Source: an uncultured Thermoplasmata archaeon
GTDB taxonomy: Archaea > Thermoplasmatota > Thermoplasmata > RBG-16-68-12
Length of the DNA: 64,000 nucleotides
Direction: 5' to 3'
Assembly (NCBI GenBank): GCA_963768855.1
Contig: CAVYJM010000007.1
Span: 32,001-96,000 of the forward strand
The translations under genes were made by a program, and so were the position numbers. The notes beneath the pieces are model-generated. The model saw only the letters and a program-made list of their open reading frames with translations. It had not been told where the DNA came from and ran no database searches. Below are positions 14,190 through 54,936 of this stretch, piece after piece (positions within the stretch are counted from its first letter, which is position 1; every line of letters starts with the position of its first letter).

Positions 14190-14591
14190 GTGTCCGCGGT
14201 CCAGCGTCGTCCGTTCGTGACTGTGGACGGCCTCATTCCCATCGAGGCGAAGCTCGTGGCGGTCGTTCGCCGCAACCCGCCGTTCCAGGGGATGCCTGCC
14301 CTCCCGGGCGGCTTCGTCGAGCTCGGCGAGACGACGGAGCAGGGTGTGCTCCGCGAGGTCCGCGAGGAGACCGGGCTGGAGACGCGCGTCTTACGCTTGG
14401 TCGGCGTGTACTCCGATCCGTCGCGGGATCCTCGGGGTCACACCGTGACCGCGGCGTACGCCCTCGAGCCCACCGGAGGCGTGCTGAAGGCGGCGAGCGA
14501 CGCGAAGGAGATCGCGCTCTTGGATCCCGACCGACTGCCTCCGATGGCGTTCGACCATGCGCGCATTGTCGCAGACTGGCGTCGCGGCTAG
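14190..14591 (+). CDS. Nudix hydrolase (ADP-ribose pyrophosphatase-like)
   Basis: Canonical box GGFVELGETTEQGVLREVREETGL; SRDPRGHTV; AFDH. Confidence 0.9.
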   Translation: MSAVQRRPFVTVDGLIPIEAKLVAVVRRNPPFQGMPALPGGFVELGETTEQGVLREVREETGLETRVLRLVGVYSDPSRDPRGHTVTAAYALEPTGGVLKAASDAKEIALLDPDRLPPMAFDHARIVADWRRG

Positions 14592-33148: not shown

Positions 33149-33199
33149 AGCGCGATGGCTTTAAGGCGGACTGAACCCTCTCCCGCCCCCGGTGCCCGG

Positions 33200-34495
33200 A
33201 TGAAGAGCTCGGACGTCTCCGGATTCTACAAGAAGAGCCCCCAGGAGCGCTGGCAGGTCGTGCGGGAGTTCGGCGATCTCTCCGAGGCCGAGATCGCGAC
33301 GATCCGGAACACGGGCGCCCTCGCCTTCGACCAGGTCGACCACATGATCGAGAACGTGGTCGGGGCGCTGCCCATGCCCCTGGGTATCGCGGTCAACTTC
33401 CTCGTCAACGGCAAGGACTACCTTGTTCCCATGGCGATCGAGGAGCCGAGCGTGGTCGCCGCCGCCTCGAACGCGGCGAAGATGGCGCGGGCGAAGGGCG
33501 GCTTCTCGACGAGCTCGAGCGGGCCCGTCATGATCGGACAGATCCAGCTCGTGAACGTGCCGGACCCGTTCGGCGCGAAGATGACGATCCTGTCCCACCG
33601 GGACGAGATCCTCGCCCTCGCGAACGAGAAGGACCCCGTCCTCGTGAAATTCGGGGGTGGCGCGAAGGACGTCGAGGTCCGCGTCGTCGACACAGCCCGC
33701 GGCCCCATGGTCGTGACCCATCTCCTGGTCGACTGCCGCGATGCGATGGGGGCCAACGCGGTCAACACGATGGCGGAGGCCGTGGCGCCCCACATCGAGA
33801 AATGGACGGGCGGGCGGGTCTACCTTCGGATCATCTCGAACTTGGCGGTGAAACGCCTCGCCCGGGCGAGAGCCGTCTTCGCCAAAGACGCGATCAAGAC
33901 GGACGAAATCTCGGGAGAGGACGTCGTGGACGGAATCGTCCAGGCGTTCGCCTTTGCGGACGCGGACCCGTTCCGCTGCGCCACGCACAACAAGGGGATC
34001 ATGAACGGCGTGGACGCCGTGGTCGTGGCGACGGGGAACGACTGGCGGGCCATCGAGGCGGGCGCGCATTCGTATGCCGCATGGAAGTCGGGGAGTTACC
34101 GCTCGCTGACGACCTGGGAGAAGAACGCGGACGGAGACCTCGTGGGCACGATCGAGATGCCGATGCCGGTCGGGCTGATTGGTGGAGCCACGGCCGTTCA
34201 TCCGACGGCCAAGGCCAACGTCAAGCTCCTCGGGGTCAAGAGCGCCGCCGAGCTCGCGGAAGTCATCGCTTCGGTCGGCCTGGCGCAGAACTTCGCCGCC
34301 CTCCGGGCCCTCGCCACCGAGGGGATCCAGCGGGGCCACATGTCCCTCCACGCCCGGAACATCGCCGCTACGGTCGGGGCCGCCGGCGATGAGGTGGAGG
34401 AGGTGGCCGCCGTCCTGGTCCGGGAGCGCAAGGTCCGGATGGATCGCGCCAAGGAAGTGCTCGATGAGCTCCGAAAACACAAACCGGCCCACTAA
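33200..34495 (+). CDS. HMG-CoA reductase, class II
   Basis: MIENVVG, PMAIEEPSVVAAAS, DAMGANAVNT, THNKGIMNG, GNDWRAIEAGAH, EGIQRGHM. Confidence 0.96.
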   Translation: MKSSDVSGFYKKSPQERWQVVREFGDLSEAEIATIRNTGALAFDQVDHMIENVVGALPMPLGIAVNFLVNGKDYLVPMAIEEPSVVAAASNAAKMARAKGGFSTSSSGPVMIGQIQLVNVPDPFGAKMTILSHRDEILALANEKDPVLVKFGGGAKDVEVRVVDTARGPMVVTHLLVDCRDAMGANAVNTMAEAVAPHIEKWTGGRVYLRIISNLAVKRLARARAVFAKDAIKTDEISGEDVVDGIVQAFAFADADPFRCATHNKGIMNGVDAVVVATGNDWRAIEAGAHSYAAWKSGSYRSLTTWEKNADGDLVGTIEMPMPVGLIGGATAVHPTAKANVKLLGVKSAAELAEVIASVGLAQNFAALRALATEGIQRGHMSLHARNIAATVGAAGDEVEEVAAVLVRERKVRMDRAKEVLDELRKHKPAH

Positions 34496-46542: not shown

Positions 46543-46760
46543 TCAGTCCCGCGCCGGGAGGCGCAGCCGAAGCACGACGAGATCCACAGGCATCCCTTGG
46601 ACATCCTCCCGGACGCGGTCATCCACGACGAATCCATGCTGCTGGTAAAAGCCGATCGCTCGCTCGTTGACCGCCTCGGTCTTGACAACGATCGCCCTGG
46701 CCCGAGCGGCGAGTGACCGTTCCTTTGCTTCTTCGAGCAAGGCGCTCCCGCCGCAAACGC
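46543..46760 (-). pseudogene. GNAT acetyltransferase C-terminal fragment
   Basis: GSALLEEA..VKTEAVNERAIGFYQQHGF motifs A/B; there is no room for an N-terminal half before the divergent gene at 46788. Confidence 0.7.
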
Positions 46761-46787
46761 TTATGGTCTCGGTCCGGTTCCGCACCC

Positions 46788-47327
46788 GTGTTGCGGGTCA
46801 TCTGCGTCACCGGGATGCCGGCGGCGGGCAAAGAGGAGTTCCAGAAGGTCGCCGCGGAGGCGGGGTACGTCATCGTGCGGATGGGCGACGTGGTGCGGGA
46901 GGAGGCCCGCCGCCGCGGCCTGCCGATCACGGACGCGTCCGTCGGCGGCATGGCCCACGAGGAGCGACGCATGCACGGGCCGGCCGTGTGGGCCGAGCGG
47001 ACGATTCCGCACGTCCGGGCGGAGCGGGTCTGCATCGACGGCTTGCGCAGTCCCGCCGAACTCGCCGTCTTCCGCAAGGCGTTCGGGCCTGGCCTCGTGG
47101 TCTTCGCGGTCCACGCCTCCCCTGAAACGAGATGGGCAAGAGTCCGGAGGCGGCAGCGTGCGGACGATGCGACGACCTGGGAGGAGCTCCACCGCCGCGA
47201 CGAACGGGAGACGGGTTGGGGACTCGAGGACGTCATCGACGCGGCGGACGTCCAGATCGTCAACGAGGGCACGCTCGACGAGTTCTACGCGGCGGTCCGC
47301 AGCGCCCTGAGGAAGCTCGATGGCTAG
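46788..47327 (+). CDS. P-loop nucleotide kinase, archaeal CoaE-like (COG0237)
   Basis: VTGMPAAGKE, MGDVVREE, IDGLRS, RDERE.GWG, NEG. Confidence 0.8.
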   Translation: MLRVICVTGMPAAGKEEFQKVAAEAGYVIVRMGDVVREEARRRGLPITDASVGGMAHEERRMHGPAVWAERTIPHVRAERVCIDGLRSPAELAVFRKAFGPGLVVFAVHASPETRWARVRRRQRADDATTWEELHRRDERETGWGLEDVIDAADVQIVNEGTLDEFYAAVRSALRKLDG

Positions 47328-47754
47328 CCTTCCGATTCACTGGATTGTCGCCCGGGCGTACGCCCAGGCCACCGAGGAGGAAGATCGCGTCATCCAAGCG
47401 CTCGAGGCCGCGGTCTCCGGGGGCGTCGGCTCCCGCGACACGCTGGAAGGCCAGTTCGGGAACCCAGTGGTCGTGCTGCGGCGGAGGATCGACCGCTCCG
47501 AGGACCTCCGTTCGACGTGGGAACGGTGGCGCGGGGCCGGGCTCCTGGCGACGCTGAAGGACGATCTCGAGGAACGCCTCGACGACGATGGCGTCCTTCA
47601 CTTCCGGGTCGACAAGCAGTCCGCCTTCGGGGGGACCCTCGCTCCCGCCCGCGGCGCGGACCCCATCGACATCCAGGTGAAGTTGAAGGCCTATCCCGCC
47701 AAGGCGGAGGAAGTCCGCCGGGTGGCGCGGACCCTCCTCGAGGAGGCAGGCTGA
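47320..47754 (+). CDS. Archaeal RNA-binding-domain protein (COG1325-like)
   Basis: AQATEEEDRV, EGQFGNP, LHFRVDKQ, KLKAYP. Confidence 0.8.
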   Translation: MASLPIHWIVARAYAQATEEEDRVIQALEAAVSGGVGSRDTLEGQFGNPVVVLRRRIDRSEDLRSTWERWRGAGLLATLKDDLEERLDDDGVLHFRVDKQSAFGGTLAPARGADPIDIQVKLKAYPAKAEEVRRVARTLLEEAG

Positions 47755-48918
47755 ATGCGGCTCACTGCCAGGCAGGCCCGGCTGGGCCGGGAGGGGAGCG
47801 CGGCGCAGCGGAAGGCGCTCCAGCTCCTCGTCGCCCTGGGGGACCTCTATGAGGCGGAGCGCCTCGTGCCCGTCACCTCCACCCATGTCTCCGGGGCGTC
47901 GTACAAGCTGATCGGCGATGCCGGCGTCGAGTTCCTTGAGGACTTCGCGAAGGACGCGCGCGTGGCCGTCCCGACGACCGTGAACCCCCTCGGCACGGAC
48001 CTCCAGCAATGGAGGGAGCTCGGCATTCCCGAGGCGTTCGCGGAGCACCAGGCCCGCGTGGCCCGCGCCTACGAAGCCATGGGCGCACGGCCCGTGTACT
48101 CGTGCACGCCCTACCTGCTCGGGGTCCGCCCCCGGCTCGGCGAGCACGTCGCCTGGTCCGAGTCAAACGCGGTCTGCTTCGCGAACTCGGTCCTGGGCGC
48201 CCGGACGAATCGGGAGGGCGGACCCTCCGCTCTCGCGGCGGCGATCGTCGGGGCGACGCCCGACTACGGGTTGCACCGGGACACCGGCCGCCAGCCCACG
48301 GTCGTGTTCGACGTGCGGACCAAGCTGGAGGGCATCGGCTTCTCGCTCCTCGGACTTCTGGCAGGCAAAGAGACGGGCGACGGCCTCCCGTACTTCCGTG
48401 GCTTCCGCGCCTCCGAGGAGGACCTCAAGTGGCTCGGCGCGGCGGTCGCCTCGTCCGGCAGCGTCGGGATGTTCCACCTCGAACGGATGACGCCGGAGTG
48501 GCGGCGGGCGAGGACCCGCGGCCTGCCGAAGGTCGTGGTGACCGCTCGGGACCTGAAGGAAGTACAGAAGCACTACACGGATGGCGAGGAGGCGGACCTC
48601 ATCGCGCTCGGCTCGCCCCAGCTCTCCGGGGACGAACTTCGGACGATCGCGGCCCTCGTGGACCAAAGTCCCCCGCGAATCCCCGTGTGGGTCTTCACGA
48701 GCCGGGCGGTCCGTGAGGCCTGCCCGGAGGCCGTTGCATCGATCGAGCGGTGCGGGGGCCGCGTCCTCGCGGACACGTGTCTCGAGGTCACCCTGCTCGA
48801 GCACCGGTTCCATACGGTCGCCACGCCTTCCGGCAAGGGGGCCTACTACCTCCCGAGCCTGTGCCGGCAGAAGGTCATCTTGGACGACATCGAGACACTC
48901 CTGGAGCGATACGCATGA
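47755..48918 (+). CDS. Aconitase X catalytic subunit, putative phosphomevalonate dehydratase large subunit
   Basis: HVSGASY, TTVNP, SCTPY, WSESNAVCFANSVLGARTNREGGPSAL, GMFH, DTC, SGKGAYY. Confidence 0.88.
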   Translation: MRLTARQARLGREGSAAQRKALQLLVALGDLYEAERLVPVTSTHVSGASYKLIGDAGVEFLEDFAKDARVAVPTTVNPLGTDLQQWRELGIPEAFAEHQARVARAYEAMGARPVYSCTPYLLGVRPRLGEHVAWSESNAVCFANSVLGARTNREGGPSALAAAIVGATPDYGLHRDTGRQPTVVFDVRTKLEGIGFSLLGLLAGKETGDGLPYFRGFRASEEDLKWLGAAVASSGSVGMFHLERMTPEWRRARTRGLPKVVVTARDLKEVQKHYTDGEEADLIALGSPQLSGDELRTIAALVDQSPPRIPVWVFTSRAVREACPEAVASIERCGGRVLADTCLEVTLLEHRFHTVATPSGKGAYYLPSLCRQKVILDDIETLLERYA

Positions 48919-49700
48919 GGCTCCCCGCCCGCCGCATCTCCCCGGGCCGGGCCGAGGGGAGGGCCCTCGTAAGCCCTGTGCCCTTCTCGTTCGTCGGCGG
49001 TGCGGACCCGGAGAAGGGGACCGTCCTCGACGAGGCCACCGGCTGCCGCGGGGAGCCGCTCGCGGGGCGGGTGTTCGCGTTCCCGCAGGGGAAGGGGAGC
49101 ACGGTGGGCTCCTACGCGATCTACGGGCTCGCGAAACGCGGAATCGGACCCGCCGCGCTCCTGAACGAGCGGGCCGAAGCGATCGTCGCCGCAGGGGCCA
49201 TCCTGGGCGGCGTGCCGATGGTCGACCGCGTGGACCTCGGCGCCTTCGTCACGGGCGACTGGGTGATCGTCGACGCGGACCGAGGGCGCGTTGACCTCCC
49301 GGAGGTCACCCCGCGGCCCGTGGTGAGCGCCTTCCTCCGGAATCGAGGGCGCTTCCTGGTGTTGCGGCGGAGCGATCGCGTGGGCAGCTTCCGGGGACGG
49401 TGGTCCGCGGTCTCCGGCTACATCGAGGGTCGCGAGGATCCGCGGGACCGGGCGGCCCAAGAGATCCGGGAGGAGACGCAAGCCAAGGGCGCGCGCTTCC
49501 GGAAGGCCGCGAATCCGCTGTACACGCGGGATGGCGCGACTGCGTTCATCGTGCACCCGTTCCTCTTCGACGTCCCCTCGCGACGCGTCACGCTCGACTG
49601 GGAGAACCTCGAGCACCGTTGGATTGCGCCGTCCGAGCTCGCGACCCTGGACACGGTTCCCCGGCTGGGAATTGTCTTAGACCGACTTTTGCACGGCTAG
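48915..49700 (+). CDS. Aconitase X swivel (DUF126-like) small subunit fused to a C-terminal Nudix domain
   Basis: GRAEGRALVS, FPQGKGSTVGSY, IVAAGAILGGVPMVD, then VVSAFL..RRS..WSAVSGYIE..EIREET, LDWE, W..P.EL. Confidence 0.85.
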   Translation: MRLPARRISPGRAEGRALVSPVPFSFVGGADPEKGTVLDEATGCRGEPLAGRVFAFPQGKGSTVGSYAIYGLAKRGIGPAALLNERAEAIVAAGAILGGVPMVDRVDLGAFVTGDWVIVDADRGRVDLPEVTPRPVVSAFLRNRGRFLVLRRSDRVGSFRGRWSAVSGYIEGREDPRDRAAQEIREETQAKGARFRKAANPLYTRDGATAFIVHPFLFDVPSRRVTLDWENLEHRWIAPSELATLDTVPRLGIVLDRLLHG

Positions 49701-49745
49701 TACTTGCGCAAAGGTTAAGCAACGCGGCGCGTGCTTGACGGTTCC

Positions 49746-50816
49746 ATGGCAAAGCGGGGTCTCACCGGCAACGAGAAGCACGTCCTGTACGGGCTCGTCC
49801 GGCACCCCGTGCTGAACGACCGCGAGCTCTCGGAACTCTTGAACATCAAGGTGTCCACAGTCACCGCCATCCGCCGTCGCCTCCGGCGCGCGGAGTACTT
49901 CGTCACGCGACGCGTCCCGATGATGCACCGGCTCGGCTGGGAGCTCCTCTACGGCGGCTCGGCGCGCCTGGACCTGACGCAGGGCGGGCAGGTCCTCCCG
50001 CGGCTCCGCGAGATCCTGAAGGACCGTTTCCCCGATCTCTTCCACATCGTCGCCTCGGCCGACCGCCTGTCGTTCCTGGGATTCGCCCGGAACTACACGG
50101 CCGCCCGACAGCAGGTCGACGAGCTCCGCCAGGCCCTGGACCGAGCGAAGCTCCTCGGCGACGCGGATCTGCACCTGACCGCGTTCCCCATGAGCCTCTC
50201 GGCCCTCCCGACGTTCTTCGATTACAGCCACTCCCTCGCCCTCGCCTTCGAGATCGACGACCGCCTCGGCATCAAGCTGGATCGGGCGAAGACCGGGGAC
50301 ATCGAGCTCACCCGCAAGGAGACGGAGGTCCTCAAGGGACTCGTGCGGTTCCCTGAGCTGAGCGACAAGGCGCTCGCGCAACGAGTCAAGGTCTCCCGCC
50401 AGGCCGTGTCGAAGATGCGGCGCGAGTTCGAGGGAGAAGGGTTGCTTCGGACGGCCCGTGTGCCCAACCTGCGGCTCCTGGGCTTCGAGCTCTATGTGAC
50501 GGCCTTCGCCCAGTTCCGCCCCTCGGCCCCGCTGAAATCCCGGGCGGATGCTTTCGAACGGCTCCTCCGGACTACGTCCACGTTCTTCCTCATCTCCGAC
50601 GAGTCGGACGCGATCGTCATCGGCACGTCGCTGTCGTACGAGCAGTTCTCGATCCTGAATGTCGGGCTCACGAAGCACTTTCAAGAGCGGGGCTTCCTGG
50701 CCTCCGACCCGGAGATCCACGTCGGGCTGACCGCCTCGACGGAGATCCTACGCAACTGCGAGTTCGGGCCGATCGTCCAGTCCCTCACGGTTCCGGAGCC
50801 GAAGTCGAGCCGATGA
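49746..50816 (+). CDS. Transcriptional regulator with two tandem HTH + effector-like repeats (Lrp/AsnC-like)
   Basis: LTGNEKHVLYGLVRHPVLNDRELS..STVTAIRRRL and LTRKETEVLKGLVRFPELSDKALA..QAVSKMRREF, each followed by P...LG.EL. Confidence 0.75.
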   Translation: MAKRGLTGNEKHVLYGLVRHPVLNDRELSELLNIKVSTVTAIRRRLRRAEYFVTRRVPMMHRLGWELLYGGSARLDLTQGGQVLPRLREILKDRFPDLFHIVASADRLSFLGFARNYTAARQQVDELRQALDRAKLLGDADLHLTAFPMSLSALPTFFDYSHSLALAFEIDDRLGIKLDRAKTGDIELTRKETEVLKGLVRFPELSDKALAQRVKVSRQAVSKMRREFEGEGLLRTARVPNLRLLGFELYVTAFAQFRPSAPLKSRADAFERLLRTTSTFFLISDESDAIVIGTSLSYEQFSILNVGLTKHFQERGFLASDPEIHVGLTASTEILRNCEFGPIVQSLTVPEPKSSR

Positions 50817-53800
50817 CCTGGTCCACCTCGCGCTCCAGAAGCGTGAGCTGGTGGTTCTCGAGCGCGGAAGGGCTCACGGACAACAGGAGGATCCCGTTGC
50901 TGATCGCGACCTGGTCGCGCATGGCCTGCACGAGCCGCAGGACCGTGAGGAAGTTGTTGTTCGTCACCAGGTACTCGATCCCGTCCAGGAGGACGACCCC
51001 CCGCTCGCGGCCGACGAACTGCTCGACGGACAGGGAGAGCTTCTCGAGGTCCTTCGGGCGGATCGCGTCCTCCTTGCCGACGTTGCTCAGCCACAGGATG
51101 GACAGATCCTCGGCGCCGAAGCGTTCCCGCAGCTTCTGGGGATAGACGCGCGTCACGCACAGACCGCGGAGGCCAGAGGCAGTCGCCTCTTGGAACAGGC
51201 GGTAGACCTCGCCCGGCTGGTCCTCTTCGACCAGGTACGTGGAGGACCCGCGGAGCGGCGCTCGGCCGGTCGCGGCGATCGAACCGGGCTCCGCCTTGGC
51301 GGCGGGCTTCTGGCGCGCGCCACAGGAGGGACACACCTCGGAGCCGGCGAGGATGAAATCTCCGCAGGCGACGCAGGCGGTCCGGGACGCACCCGGGACT
51401 CCGGGCACAGGGGCGGCCAGGGACAGCCCGCAGACGGGGCAGGAGTCCTCGCCTGGCGGGATCGGGGCGTTGCACCGCGAACAGGTGACCGTCTGGTCCG
51501 TGACGGGCTCCGCGCAGCGCGGGCACCGGCGGGTCCCCCTGGCGAGTGGCGCGCCGCAGACGGGACAGGGGATGAGAGCCTCCGCGGGGGAGGACAGCGA
51601 CTCGACGATCCGGGCCGCATCGCCGGGCTCGAGGCCCTCGATCGCCGCAAGCTCCTGCCGGGAGGCGGCGCGGAGAGCCGCGAGGCTCTTGTATCCTGCG
51701 TCGAAGAGACGCATGGCCTTCCCGGCCGTGACGCCGGGGATGCGCGTGAACTCGCGCAGGGCCTCGGCCATGTGGAGAGGGGTCAGGCCGACCGTCACGG
51801 TCTGACCGCTCACATCGTTCCATTCCACGACGTACTCGGCCTGGACGTCCCGGTCCACGAGGGAGAGGATGCGGGACCGGGTCTCCCGGGCCACCAAGTC
51901 TCTCTGGGAATCGAGCGCGGCAGCCAGGTCGCGGCTCGCCTTGAGCGTCGTGACGACGTAATCGTCCACGTCGAGGTCGATGTCCTTCCGCATCTGCTGG
52001 ATTCGACGGATGACCTCGCGCGCGTATCCCTCCGCCTGGATCTCCGGGGTTACGCGCATGTCGATGTAGAGTTCCCCGTGCGGCGTCCGGACCACGGCGA
52101 CGTCTTCCGGCAGTTTGCGGTCGAAGCGGACCATGCTCGGCTCGATCGTGACGATCTGACCCTCGACCCCGATCGAGAAGGAGCCCCTGTCCAACGCGCG
52201 CTTCACCTCGTCGGGCGGACGGCTCTCGAGGATCGAGGCGATCTTGGGCCAGAGAGCGCGGTACGCCTTGCCGATTGACGCGGGATCGGGCTTGAGGACG
52301 AGCGCGAGGCCGGGGAAATCCTCCTGCGGCTGAAGGACCGCCAGCTCCTTCGCGTTGGACTGCTCCAGGAAGATGGACCGCAGGGTCGTCAAGGCGGACG
52401 CGGCCCCGGGGGTGAGCCCCTTTCCGGCGATCAGCCGGACGGGCCACCGCAGCTTGCGCCCGCTCTTCTGCCGCTCCTTCGAGACCGCCTCGACGAGCTC
52501 CTGGACGATGGCCATCGACGCCTCGAGGTCCGCGTCGACGCGCTCCGGGTGCGGCTCCGGCCAGTCGAGCATGTGCACGCTGAGCCGGCGTCCGTCCAAG
52601 TGCTGGTACACCGCCTCCGCGATGTGCGGCGTCAGCGGGGCGAGGAGCTTGGCGAGGGTCAGGAGCGTCTCATGGAGGACGTGGTAGGCGGCCAGCTTCC
52701 CTTTGTCGTCCGCGTCGATCCACGTGCGCTCCCGCGCGAGCTTGACGTACCAGCGGGACAGGTCGTCCAGGATGAACGCATCGACCGCGCGGTACGCCCG
52801 GTGCATCGCGTAGGTCTCCATCGCCTTGTCGAAGGCCGCCTTCAGGCCCTCGAGTCGGGAAAGGAGCCAGCGGTCCTCGGGGCGGAGATGGTCGGCGAGG
52901 GATGCCAGGTCGTCCTTCGTCGGGTCGAAGCGGTCGAGGGTCATGTAAGTCGTCGCGAACCGCAGAACGTTCCACAGGATGTTGAGGGTGCGATGGCACG
53001 TCCGGACGCCCTCCTCCTGGAACGTGATGTCGTCCCAGATCGCGTTGACGGAGACGACGTAGAAGCGCAACGGGTCCACGCCGAACTTGGCGATGACCGT
53101 GGCGGGCTCGATCACGTTCCCCAGGCTCTTGTGCATCTGCCGCCCGTCGGGCCCGTTGACCCACCCGTGCATCAGGACGGCATCGTAGGGCGCCCGGTCA
53201 AAGGCGACCACGCCCGCGGCGAGCTGGGAGTAGAACCAGCCTCGCGTCTGGTCCGGACCCTCGACGATCCACTTCCCGGGCCACCATCGCTTGAACTCGT
53301 CCTCTCGCGACGGGTAGCCGAGGCTCGCCCAGCTCGCCACGCCGCTGTCGAACCACACGTCGAGCACGTCCTTGATGCGGTTCATGTCTCCGCCGCACTT
53401 CTCGCACGGCACGACGACGGCGTCGATCCACGGCCGGTGGAGGTCCATGCCCGGGGTGTAGCCCTTCGCGCGGCGGAGCTCGTCCGAGGAGCCGACCACG
53501 GTCCAGGCCGCGCACTTCGCGCACCGCCAGATCGGCAGCGGGATGCCCCAGTACCGCTGGCGGGAGAGGCACCAGTCCTTCAGGTTCCGGGTCCAGTCCG
53601 CCTCCCGCGCGGACCCGGCCCAGTCCGGGTACCACTTCACCCGCGCGATCTCCTCGAGCATCCGACCCTTGACGTCCGTCACCTTGAGGAACCACTGGAC
53701 CGTGGCGCGGAACAGGATCGGCGTCTTGCACCGCCAGCAGTGCCCGTAGGAGTGGGTGACCTTGTCCTCCGCGAAGAGGGCATGGAGCGTCTTCAGATCC

Positions 53801-54936
53801 TCGACGATGACCGGGTTCGCCTCGCGCACGTGCATGCCGGCGTAGGCGCCCGCGTCCGCGACGTACCGGCCGCGCTCGTCGACGGGGGAGAAGGTCGGGA
53901 TCCCGAGGCGCTGCCCGAGCTCGAAGTCCTCGGGTCCGTGACCCGGAGCGCTGTGGACGAGGCCCGTCCGCTCCGCCTCGACGATGTCGGAGGGGACGAC
54001 CTTGTGGACCCATTGACCCTGGACGTTCGCCTGGTACGGCACCTTCGGGGCGAGCGGGTTGACGTACGCGGTCCCGAGGAGCTCCGCGCCCTTCGCCTTC
54101 GAGACGACCTCGTAGACCTTCACGCCCCCGAGGGCCATGACCGCCGGGACGGCCGACTCGAGGAGCCAGAGGAACTCGGACCGCTCTCCGTGCGAGACGC
54201 GCACCTTGGCGTACGTGAAGTCGGGATGGGCGGCGATCGCCATGTTCGCGGGGAGCGTCCACGGCGTCGTGGTCCAGATGAGGAGGGACTCGTTCGGCCG
54301 CTCCGCGAGGGGGAACTTGACGTAGACGGACAGGTCCGTCTCGTCCGCGTACTCGACCTCGGCCTCCGCGAGCGCGGTCTCGCATCGGGCGCACCACTGC
54401 AGGGAGCGGAGGGCCTCGTACAGGAGACCGCGCTCGAAGGCCCGCCGGAAGGTCCACCAGGCGCCCTCGATGTACTCGTTCTTGATCGTCATGTACGGGC
54501 GCTCCCAGTCGAGCCAGACGCCGAGGGACTGGAACGCCACGTTCATCTTGCCGAGGAGGTCGACGGAGAAGTCGCGGCAGGCGTTCACGAACTTCTCGAT
54601 CCCGAGCTCCTCGATCTCCTTCTTGTTCGTGATGCCGAGGGTCTTCTCGACCTGGACCTCGATCGGGAGGCCGTGCATGTCGTACCCGGCCTGGTCCCGC
54701 ACGTGGTACCCGTGCATCCGCCGCCACCGCACGACCGCGTCCTTCACGGTCTTGTTCAGGACCTGGCCCAGGTGGATCGCGCCGGTCGTGTACGGGGGTC
54801 CGTCCACGAAGTAGTAGTCCTTGTCCTTCTCGCGCGCGGCGACCGTCTTCGCGTACGCCCTCGTGCGCACCCAGAAGTCTTGGACCGATTTCTCCAACTC
54901 GAGGGGCTTGTACTCGCTCTCCGCCTGCTTGATCAT
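50785..54936 (-). CDS. ileS: Isoleucine-tRNA ligase with C-terminal HhH + zinc-ribbon + DUF835 extension
   Basis: DGPPYTTG.IHLG, GYDMHGLPIE, WTTTPWTLP.N, GLVHSAPGHG, SRQRYWG.PLP, EGPDQTRGWF, QMHKSLGN, WYV; the frame continues 328 aa without a stop. Confidence 0.96.
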   Translation of the reverse strand: MIKQAESEYKPLELEKSVQDFWVRTRAYAKTVAAREKDKDYYFVDGPPYTTGAIHLGQVLNKTVKDAVVRWRRMHGYHVRDQAGYDMHGLPIEVQVEKTLGITNKKEIEELGIEKFVNACRDFSVDLLGKMNVAFQSLGVWLDWERPYMTIKNEYIEGAWWTFRRAFERGLLYEALRSLQWCARCETALAEAEVEYADETDLSVYVKFPLAERPNESLLIWTTTPWTLPANMAIAAHPDFTYAKVRVSHGERSEFLWLLESAVPAVMALGGVKVYEVVSKAKGAELLGTAYVNPLAPKVPYQANVQGQWVHKVVPSDIVEAERTGLVHSAPGHGPEDFELGQRLGIPTFSPVDERGRYVADAGAYAGMHVREANPVIVEDLKTLHALFAEDKVTHSYGHCWRCKTPILFRATVQWFLKVTDVKGRMLEEIARVKWYPDWAGSAREADWTRNLKDWCLSRQRYWGIPLPIWRCAKCAAWTVVGSSDELRRAKGYTPGMDLHRPWIDAVVVPCEKCGGDMNRIKDVLDVWFDSGVASWASLGYPSREDEFKRWWPGKWIVEGPDQTRGWFYSQLAAGVVAFDRAPYDAVLMHGWVNGPDGRQMHKSLGNVIEPATVIAKFGVDPLRFYVVSVNAIWDDITFQEEGVRTCHRTLNILWNVLRFATTYMTLDRFDPTKDDLASLADHLRPEDRWLLSRLEGLKAAFDKAMETYAMHRAYRAVDAFILDDLSRWYVKLARERTWIDADDKGKLAAYHVLHETLLTLAKLLAPLTPHIAEAVYQHLDGRRLSVHMLDWPEPHPERVDADLEASMAIVQELVEAVSKERQKSGRKLRWPVRLIAGKGLTPGAASALTTLRSIFLEQSNAKELAVLQPQEDFPGLALVLKPDPASIGKAYRALWPKIASILESRPPDEVKRALDRGSFSIGVEGQIVTIEPSMVRFDRKLPEDVAVVRTPHGELYIDMRVTPEIQAEGYAREVIRRIQQMRKDIDLDVDDYVVTTLKASRDLAAALDSQRDLVARETRSRILSLVDRDVQAEYVVEWNDVSGQTVTVGLTPLHMAEALREFTRIPGVTAGKAMRLFDAGYKSLAALRAASRQELAAIEGLEPGDAARIVESLSSPAEALIPCPVCGAPLARGTRRCPRCAEPVTDQTVTCSRCNAPIPPGEDSCPVCGLSLAAPVPGVPGASRTACVACGDFILAGSEVCPSCGARQKPAAKAEPGSIAATGRAPLRGSSTYLVEEDQPGEVYRLFQEATASGLRGLCVTRVYPQKLRERFGAEDLSILWLSNVGKEDAIRPKDLEKLSLSVEQFVGRERGVVLLDGIEYLVTNNNFLTVLRLVQAMRDQVAISNGILLLSVSPSALENHQLTLLEREVDQVIGSTSAPEP

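Follow-up and report, generated by a model that had tools for sequence, protein, structure and literature searches.

A predicted phosphomevalonate dehydratase small subunit fused to a Nudix hydrolase domain in an archaeon of the class Thermoplasmata

Phosphomevalonate dehydratases (PMDh) of Thermococcus kodakarensis (TkPMDh; 7CNR/7CNS) and Aeropyrum pernix (ApPMDh) are the described systems with which the proteins considered here are best compared. The two subunits of these enzymes are encoded by tandem genes; the ligands of the [4Fe-4S] cluster are C122, C297, and C356 in ApPMDh, corresponding to C110, C283, and C342 in TkPMDh, and Thr63 of TkPMDh touches the carboxylate of mevalonate 5-phosphate (MVA5P) (PMC10040528). 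By our reading of the numbering, this threonine belongs to the small subunit. A tandem pair of AcnX genes, alike in arrangement, was found in a 64,000-nucleotide stretch (the window) of contig CAVYJM010000007.1 from an uncultured Thermoplasmata archaeon (assembly GCA_963768855.1). There, the small subunit continues in frame into a C-terminal Nudix hydrolase domain, which, compared with the T. kodakarensis and A. pernix enzymes, is a feature of this archaeon.

The elucidation of the archaeal mevalonate pathway is recent, and no paper was found that names the source of dimethylallyl phosphate (DMAP) for its UbiX. When a pathway subunit is joined class-wide to a pyrophosphatase, the fusion is a clue of the sort that might lead to such a source; the comparative record lowers that hope. 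We favour, with moderate confidence, a protein of two domains and two activities, in which a portable housekeeping Nudix enzyme is carried in an old rigid fusion and does not perform a channelled step of the mevalonate pathway. This reading is built on the domain identities, the conservation of catalytic residues, the distribution, and the separability that were observed, from which we infer the substrate class and the entrenchment of the interface.

The fused gene and its two domains

A Pfam scan of the 261-aa protein detected AcnX_swivel (PF01989) at residues 24–103 (E 2.8e-26, 91.6 bits) and NUDIX (PF00293) at residues 133–250 (E 1e-9, 39 bits against a cut-off of 21.1), while the NCBIfam entry PRK03955 (DUF126) spanned residues 1–128. 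The start codon of the fused gene (ATG at 48915) and the TGA stop codon of the AcnX large subunit gene (47755–48918) overlap as ATGA. The length of the linker between swivel and Nudix was conserved class-wide in alignments of relatives. The AF2 model of the whole fused protein had a pLDDT of 95.6 and a pTM of 0.88; since the latter value is high for two domains, their mutual orientation is probably fixed, and the modelled protein would form a rigid unit. These results agree with an earlier sequence-only reading of the window, which had described a swivel domain of about 130 aa running in frame into a Nudix domain, a box with R-to-Q and G-to-Q changes (present at aa 168–190 exactly as described), coupling of the fused gene to that of the AcnX large subunit, and an HMG-CoA reductase in the same window; the last of these genes lies 14 kb off, outside the operon.

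The small subunit was aligned over residues 2–128 with TK1248 (7cnr_B; E 1.3e-35), and the modelled swivel matched the same chain with Foldseek TM values of 0.94–0.96. The swivel loop residues G61, S62, T63, V64, G65, and S66 were invariant (alignment A1). The large subunit had an E value of 9e-92 to TkPMDh (7cnr_A) and of 1e-54 to the bacterial cis-3-hydroxyproline dehydratase (7cnp_A). The AcnX pair is predicted to be of the archaeal two-subunit PMDh type (type IIb), as the sequence-only reading had proposed, with 7CNR of T. kodakarensis as the best match for both subunits; grouping with hydroxyproline dehydratases, named there as evidence that would speak against the proposal, does not apply, given 9e-92 versus 1e-54. 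According to a genome search, the fused protein is the sole AcnX small subunit of the source genome.

The second domain belongs to the Nudix superfamily: PF00293 scored over its cut-off, Foldseek matched Nudix structures, and the residues G, E, E, and EE were present. Its box reads G168-x5-E174-x7-Q182-E183-I-x-E186-E187-x-Q189-A190, whereas the canonical one is GX5EX7REUXEEXGU; all box glutamates are present, and R and the second G are replaced by Q. The R position varies in relatives (R/K/Q/M/T and others). The change of the second G is not general: an 89%-identical relative and most others have G at this position, and a few distant ones have Q. No variation was seen at G168, E171, E183, E186, E187, R152, R205, and E230 among 21 fused proteins drawn from across the class. 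The domain looks active, as judged from its sequence, because the catalytic residues are invariant and the deviations of the box do not look disabling. Motifs characteristic of the family are VSGYxE, VHPFLF, LDWE[NH]xExRW, and DTVP.

The nearest structures in PDB sequence and fold searches were 3grn of Methanosarcina mazei (TM 0.83), NudI, BdRppH, NudG, and MutT2; these searches returned no relative whose substrate would be informative, and Nudix substrate specificity is not readable from sequence. A search of the ESM Atlas for look-alikes returned generic Nudix clusters only. The likeness to NudI was at E 3e-6, and the score against the NudI equivalog NF012016 was 21.1 bits, below its cut-off of 95.

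Distribution of the fusion and natural separation of its domains

Searched against 5.8 billion proteins, the fused protein had 478 matches, the best 120 of which all had both Pfam domains (63–87% identity, 258–282 aa). Named full-length matches, at 43–46% identity, came from Thermoplasmata metagenome-assembled genomes and from two Methanomassiliicoccaceae genomes, among others. Among 301 genomes sampled from the phylum, the full-length fusion was present in families f2 (36/36), f3, and f6–f10 of the same class, and none of the 18 genomes of family f5 had a match to the fused protein. The large subunit gene was directly upstream of the fusion in all the loci read. The survey of the DUF126–Nudix fusion suggested in the sequence-only reading thus found it class-wide in the families other than f5, and this recurrence disposes of the possibility, raised there, that the fusion is a sequencing artefact. 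An assembly or sequencing artefact is refuted, since hundreds of independent assemblies, and complete genomes as well, show this architecture at 35–89% identity. The join is real and old, and probably dates back to an early stage of the class Thermoplasmata. Automatic annotations of both domains already stand in public records. In the literature searched, papers on the archaeal mevalonate pathway included, we found no description of the fusion, nor any paper joining phosphomevalonate dehydratase with Nudix or dimethylallyl phosphate and UbiX with Nudix.

In other classes of Thermoplasmatota, the small subunit is a separate protein, matching query residues 1–128. Many of these genomes also carry a stand-alone Nudix gene (~135 aa) on another contig, whose product matches residues 133–259 at 40–49% identity. 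When the stand-alone Nudix proteins were compared with the source genome, the fused domain was the best match (1e-26 to 1e-33), the other 13 Nudix matches being at 1e-10 or worse; as reciprocal best hits, the stand-alone proteins of the sister classes are orthologues of the fused domain.

Family f3 contains genomes in which the two activities have come apart. Genome G067 has a single intact fusion (L043:5001-5783, −), and its congener, genome G206, carries two (L107:1356-2138, −, and L070:3507-4247, +). Copy 1 of G206 stands beside the AcnX large subunit and UbiD genes; its swivel is intact (95.8 bits), and its Nudix box is destroyed, with the domain falling under the Pfam cut-off. In copy 2, the swivel is decayed and the Nudix is intact. 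Read from their sequences, the two copies represent a duplication of the fusion followed by subfunctionalisation. Three further genomes of the family (G025, G281, and G176) have neither an AcnX large subunit nor an AcnX-linked UbiD, and a gene resembling mevalonate diphosphate decarboxylase/phosphomevalonate decarboxylase (MDD/PMD) is present; they keep only a protein of decayed swivel and Nudix. UbiX and a UbiD of ~500 aa are still carried by the AcnX-less genomes of this family.

The N-domain of such proteins, which are ~245 aa long, is a decayed swivel: hhalign aligned it with true small subunits over the whole length (probability 98.5%, E 2e-15), and the GKGSTVGSY region is gone. The catalytic residues of the Nudix domain were invariant in 28 degenerate-swivel proteins; in Candidatus Sysuiplasma, proteins of this kind are named ‘NUDIX pyrophosphatase’. 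The model of a degenerate paralogue was compact (pTM 0.86), with low confidence only at the former catalytic loop. Since the Nudix domain persists where the dehydratase is missing and the activities are split in G206, the Nudix is selected independently, and residence of both activities on one chain is not required. We infer that the folds are retained as partners, even where one activity is lost, by structural entrenchment of the old fusion. An intact fusion, a duplicated pair with divided functions, and a relic whose partner domain has decayed form a clean natural series, which illustrates the structural locking-in of a fusion.

The Nudix family was also found with other partners. When the Nudix domain alone was used for an exhaustive search, 1707 representative clusters were obtained, and architectures were taken from the best 150 of them. 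Stand-alone proteins, true swivel fusions, and tandem Nudix proteins were among these architectures. At least 32 of the 150 clusters had a C-terminal IF-2B domain, with the Nudix domain N-terminal (for example, P0142, P0148, and P0166; L032:273-1598, +), and about 40 were 238–254 aa long with an N-domain not recognised at first, which is the decayed swivel described above; joins of Nudix with HAD, alpha/beta-hydrolase, CinA/PncC, and a PF01877-like domain occurred as single cases. The IF-2B partners were closest to ribose-1,5-bisphosphate isomerase, with scores under its cut-off. A conversion of phosphoribosyl pyrophosphate to ribose-1,5-bisphosphate that feeds the fused isomerase would fit these IF-2B–Nudix proteins. 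A Nudix–IF-2B fusion is annotated in Haloferax volcanii (HVO_1934; PMC8576121) and is likened to them by annotation only; control searches found no UbiD or UbiX in the genome of that species.

Stand-alone orthologues of the sister classes were read in 13 loci, none of which, as purely negative evidence, adjoins isoprenoid genes. They lie in three distinct conserved contexts: a PIN-ATPase-KH protein; a small methyltransferase with a radical SAM protein; and a PAF-acetylhydrolase-like protein with thymidylate kinase and PurQ. Other neighbours of the stand-alone copies were PurP and RNA methyltransferases.

Role of the Nudix domain

In the mechanism that we favour, the N-terminal swivel would pair with the large subunit encoded upstream as a phosphomevalonate dehydratase. 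The route would lead from MVA5P to anhydromevalonate phosphate and further to isopentenyl phosphate (IP), the second step being performed by a UbiD-type decarboxylase with prenylated FMN (prFMN) from UbiX. The C-terminal Nudix would be a portable housekeeping pyrophosphohydrolase captured by the AcnX operon, and its substrate is likely to be a diphosphate of nucleotide or pentose-phosphate type. The housekeeping role is suggested by the separability of the two activities in related genomes. The link to nucleotides or pentoses is suggested by the IF-2B, CinA/PncC, and HAD partners, by thymidylate kinase, PurQ, and PurP as neighbours, and by the NTP/RNA pyrophosphohydrolases among the related structures. 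The fusion is probably not a new pathway step.

Several observations weigh against this mechanism. A long-lived, class-wide fusion can indicate a functional link, and a single origin of the swivel fusion is not shown, since a FastTree phylogeny of 170 Nudix domains (141 columns) poorly resolved the branching of the fusion and the degenerate forms. In four Thermoplasmatota genomes from other families, UbiX stands directly after an unfused small subunit, at G003:C18:42653-43581, G015:C47:8154-9121, G009:C103:4483-5420, and G026:C14:3-894, so that the operon slot of the Nudix is held elsewhere by a prFMN gene. The AcnX-less lineages keep the Nudix, UbiX, and another UbiD, so that a prFMN-linked role is possible. 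NudI, one of the nearest relatives, is among the E. coli Nudix enzymes reported to act on isopentenyl diphosphate (IPP) as well as on dimethylallyl diphosphate (DMAPP) (PMC6058358).

The sequence-only reading had treated the fusion as a Rosetta-stone link, with the fused Nudix hydrolysing DMAPP or IPP and thereby supplying DMAP to UbiX or trimming the IP and IPP pools. We consider this unlikely: the fusion itself and the weak likeness to NudI speak for it, and the comparative evidence leans against it. The necessary setting is present, as AcnX, a UbiD of anhydromevalonate phosphate decarboxylase (AMPD) type, UbiX, isopentenyl phosphate kinase (IPK), and IDI2 are all encoded in the genome; UbiX follows the unfused small subunit in the four genomes given above, the Nudix and UbiX were both kept after AcnX loss, and in the papers searched no archaeal source of DMAP was named. 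However, UbiX was found in 18/18 genomes of family f5, which have no match to the fused protein, and the stand-alone orthologues stand beside no isoprenoid genes in their 13 loci. IF-2B-type isomerases are the commonest fusion partners of the family, and the example of Haloferax volcanii, assigned by annotation, is without detected UbiD or UbiX. M. mazei 3grn is only ~25% identical to the Nudix domain, and the score of 21 bits for the NudI equivalog is far from the cut-off of 95. A more specific form of the proposal, in which archaea would have in the fused Nudix their missing phosphohydrolase (DMAPP to DMAP, or IPP to IP), priming UbiX and prFMN for the decarboxylase that follows the dehydratase, and the fusion and the UbiX slot would represent one functional module, seems to us slightly less likely still.

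It is improbable that the Nudix clears a side product or damaged metabolite near the dehydratase, such as mevalonate 5-diphosphate, a diphosphate derived from CoA, or a nucleotide that is oxidised and threatens the Fe-S enzyme. The long-lived, rigid unit and the HAD–Nudix fusions of the family, which fit two-step disposal chemistry, are consistent with such local repair, but the Nudix is retained where the dehydratase is gone; a phosphomevalonate kinase, as the source of mevalonate diphosphate, was not seen, although no search was made for one. Directly upstream of the box, the sequence presumably also differs from the Nudix motif of CoA type. A non-catalytic Nudix, attached to the small subunit for structural purposes or for sensing a ligand, appears very improbable. 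Such a role would accord with copy 1 of G206, where the box is destroyed and the fold retained, and with Q in place of the canonical R and the second G in the box of the source protein. Against it, the catalytic glutamates and flanking arginines do not vary among the 21 fused proteins or the 28 with a degenerate swivel, the R position differs between members throughout the family, and close relatives have G where the second Q stands.

Large subunit, pathway genes, and comparison with known systems

Alignment of the large subunit with 7cnr_A located the site-A Cys117 (nt 48103–48105) and the site-B Cys342, while the third cluster cysteine is replaced by Ser287 (nt 48613–48615). Two of the three [4Fe-4S] cysteines of type IIb AcnX are therefore present. 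Glu344 (nt 48784–48786) is located two residues past Cys342, at the position of the third cysteine of type I AcnX (PMC10040528). In ApPMDh, replacement of the cysteine at the position of Ser287 by alanine left <4% of the activity (PMC10040528). GSPQ stands in place of the motif GCPH, and DTCLEV in place of DTCMVV; both changes were kept in 30/30 loci of families f1, f52, and f54, the Cys position being occupied by Ser, Ala, or Thr (G[SAT]PQ). The large subunit of family f55 is intermediate (GCPQ and DTCPEV), and GCPH is retained in families f50, f51, f53, and f3 and in the sampled genomes from other orders of the class, Methanomassiliicoccaceae included. A swap of the cluster ligand for Glu is plausible, or the type of the cluster may be altered. 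A large subunit without one of the three Fe-S cysteines is new here, and a predicted dehydratase with a remodelled cluster site is found in three families of this order of soil Thermoplasmata.

Searches revealed mevalonate kinase, UbiX, one UbiD, and adjoining IPK and IDI2 genes in the source genome, the latter two at G000:C6:271730-273530, outside the window. Over its full length, the UbiD shares 48% identity with the second UbiD of G067; its identity to the AcnX-adjacent UbiD of G206 is 42–68%. These values support its assignment as a putative AMPD. The G206 protein (L107:3522-4713, −; G206:C4) covers the UbiD of the source genome (G000) in two overlapping pieces, residues 17–300 and 287–412, and may contain a frameshift or an assembly error. 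The archaeal mevalonate pathway set is complete in the genome: mevalonate kinase, PMDh, UbiD-type AMPD, UbiX, IPK, and isopentenyl diphosphate isomerase. The sequence-only reading had proposed searches for mevalonate kinase and IPK, and both were found, together with IDI2; a lack of UbiD and UbiX, which it would have counted against itself, was not observed, as both are encoded. Its pathway frame holds in this genome and is incomplete, because a PMD-like decarboxylase is also present.

This decarboxylase of the MDD family is encoded at G000:C6:264578-265522 (−) (L024:1426-2394:−), outside the window and 6 kb from the IPK and IDI2 genes. It scored 372 bits against NF040704, with a cut-off of 475, and its best PDB match was 6N0X (5e-54), which we take to be the phosphomevalonate decarboxylase of Anaerolinea. 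Of 61 genomes of the order, 60 had the AcnX large subunit and 56 had the PMD-like gene; two routes from MVA5P to isopentenyl phosphate therefore coexist stably. The order-wide coexistence of AcnX and the PMD-like gene is new here: this order of soil Thermoplasmata has the ATP-saving Fe-S/prFMN route and, in addition, an ATP-dependent PMD-like decarboxylase. It is a matter of speculation that one route is oxygen-tolerant and the other ATP-saving. Coexistence with PMD and the remodelled cluster bear on how variants of the mevalonate pathway replaced one another.

The fused gene is the last in an operon of four overlapping genes at 46713–49700, encoding a P-loop kinase-like protein, a PF01877 protein, the AcnX large subunit, and the swivel–Nudix protein (Table 1). 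This operon was kept in 30/30 loci of the order and was not conserved in the sampled loci from other orders of the class. The metagenomic protein P0123 carries a PF01877-like domain joined to the same Nudix family. Homologues of the isoleucyl-tRNA synthetase (cluster c2) adjoin the fusion in convergent orientation in 16 loci of the class. The synthetase has 1383 aa, with 300-odd extra C-terminal residues in which several CxxC zinc-ribbon-like repeats and a further domain were recognised by eye; relatives likewise have the long form (cluster c2, 1379–1554 aa), and forms of 983–1036 aa occur in other families.

Table 1. Coordinates of the fused gene, its parts, and other features of the window.
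Feature	Coordinates	Strand	Evidence and remarks
Fused AcnX (PMDh-type, predicted) small subunit and Nudix hydrolase	48915..49700	+	Continuous open reading frame, 261 aa; PF01989 and PF00293
Swivel domain, aa 1–128	48915..49298	+	Includes FPxGKGSTVGSY loop, aa 56–67 (nt 49080–49115)
Linker of ~7 residues, LPEVTPR, ~aa 129–135	49299..49319	+	Joins last swivel strand to first Nudix strand
Nudix domain, aa 133–261	49311..49697	+	PF00293; box at aa 168–190 (nt 49416–49484)
AcnX large subunit, 387 aa	47755..48918	+	PF04412, E 3e-133
P-loop kinase-like protein (AAA_17 / PRK08356, UPF0200-type)	46713..47327	+	Pfam, NCBIfam; first operon gene
PF01877 (UPF0201-type ‘RNA binding’) protein	47320..47754	+	PF01877, E 2e-21; directly upstream of the large subunit gene
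Double winged-helix (MarR/TrmB-like) regulator	49731..50816	+	Pfam; downstream, only in some relatives
Isoleucyl-tRNA synthetase, long C-terminal extension	50785..54936	−	Identity read from sequence; convergent with the AcnX pair
HMG-CoA reductase	33155..34495	+	PF00368, E 4e-118
Second Nudix gene, unrelated to the fused one	14244–14576	+	PF00293, 64.5 bits; open frame of 214 aa

In comparison with the PMDh of T. kodakarensis, the GKGSTVGSY loop is retained in the small subunit of this archaeon, and the residues contacting MVA5P are mostly retained (G48, S50, N79, P80, S130, and K361), with Leu at the position of N53. The large subunit differs from those of T. kodakarensis and A. pernix by Ser in place of C283 and C297, respectively, and by Glu two residues past the site-B cysteine. 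The stand-alone Nudix proteins of the sister classes and the Candidatus Sysuiplasma protein share motifs with the fused domain (VSGYxE, VHPFLF, and DWEHxEYxW), are 40–49% identical to it, and are reciprocal best hits; however, the former have no swivel, the swivel of the latter is decayed, and neither is linked to an AcnX large subunit. In the IF-2B fusions of the family, the Nudix domain is N-terminal, and the partner is isomerase-like instead of a swivel. The ‘MutT related protein’ of M. mazei (3GRN) and enterobacterial NudI (3N77, 3OGA, and 6DT3) have the same Nudix fold (TM 0.83 and 0.67–0.74, respectively) at 21–25% identity, and 3GRN shares a C-terminal YEHxEYxW-like motif with the fused domain. 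Both are distant relatives only, far under equivalog cut-offs: 3GRN is without known function, and NudI is a pyrimidine dNTPase with a reported side activity on prenyl diphosphates.

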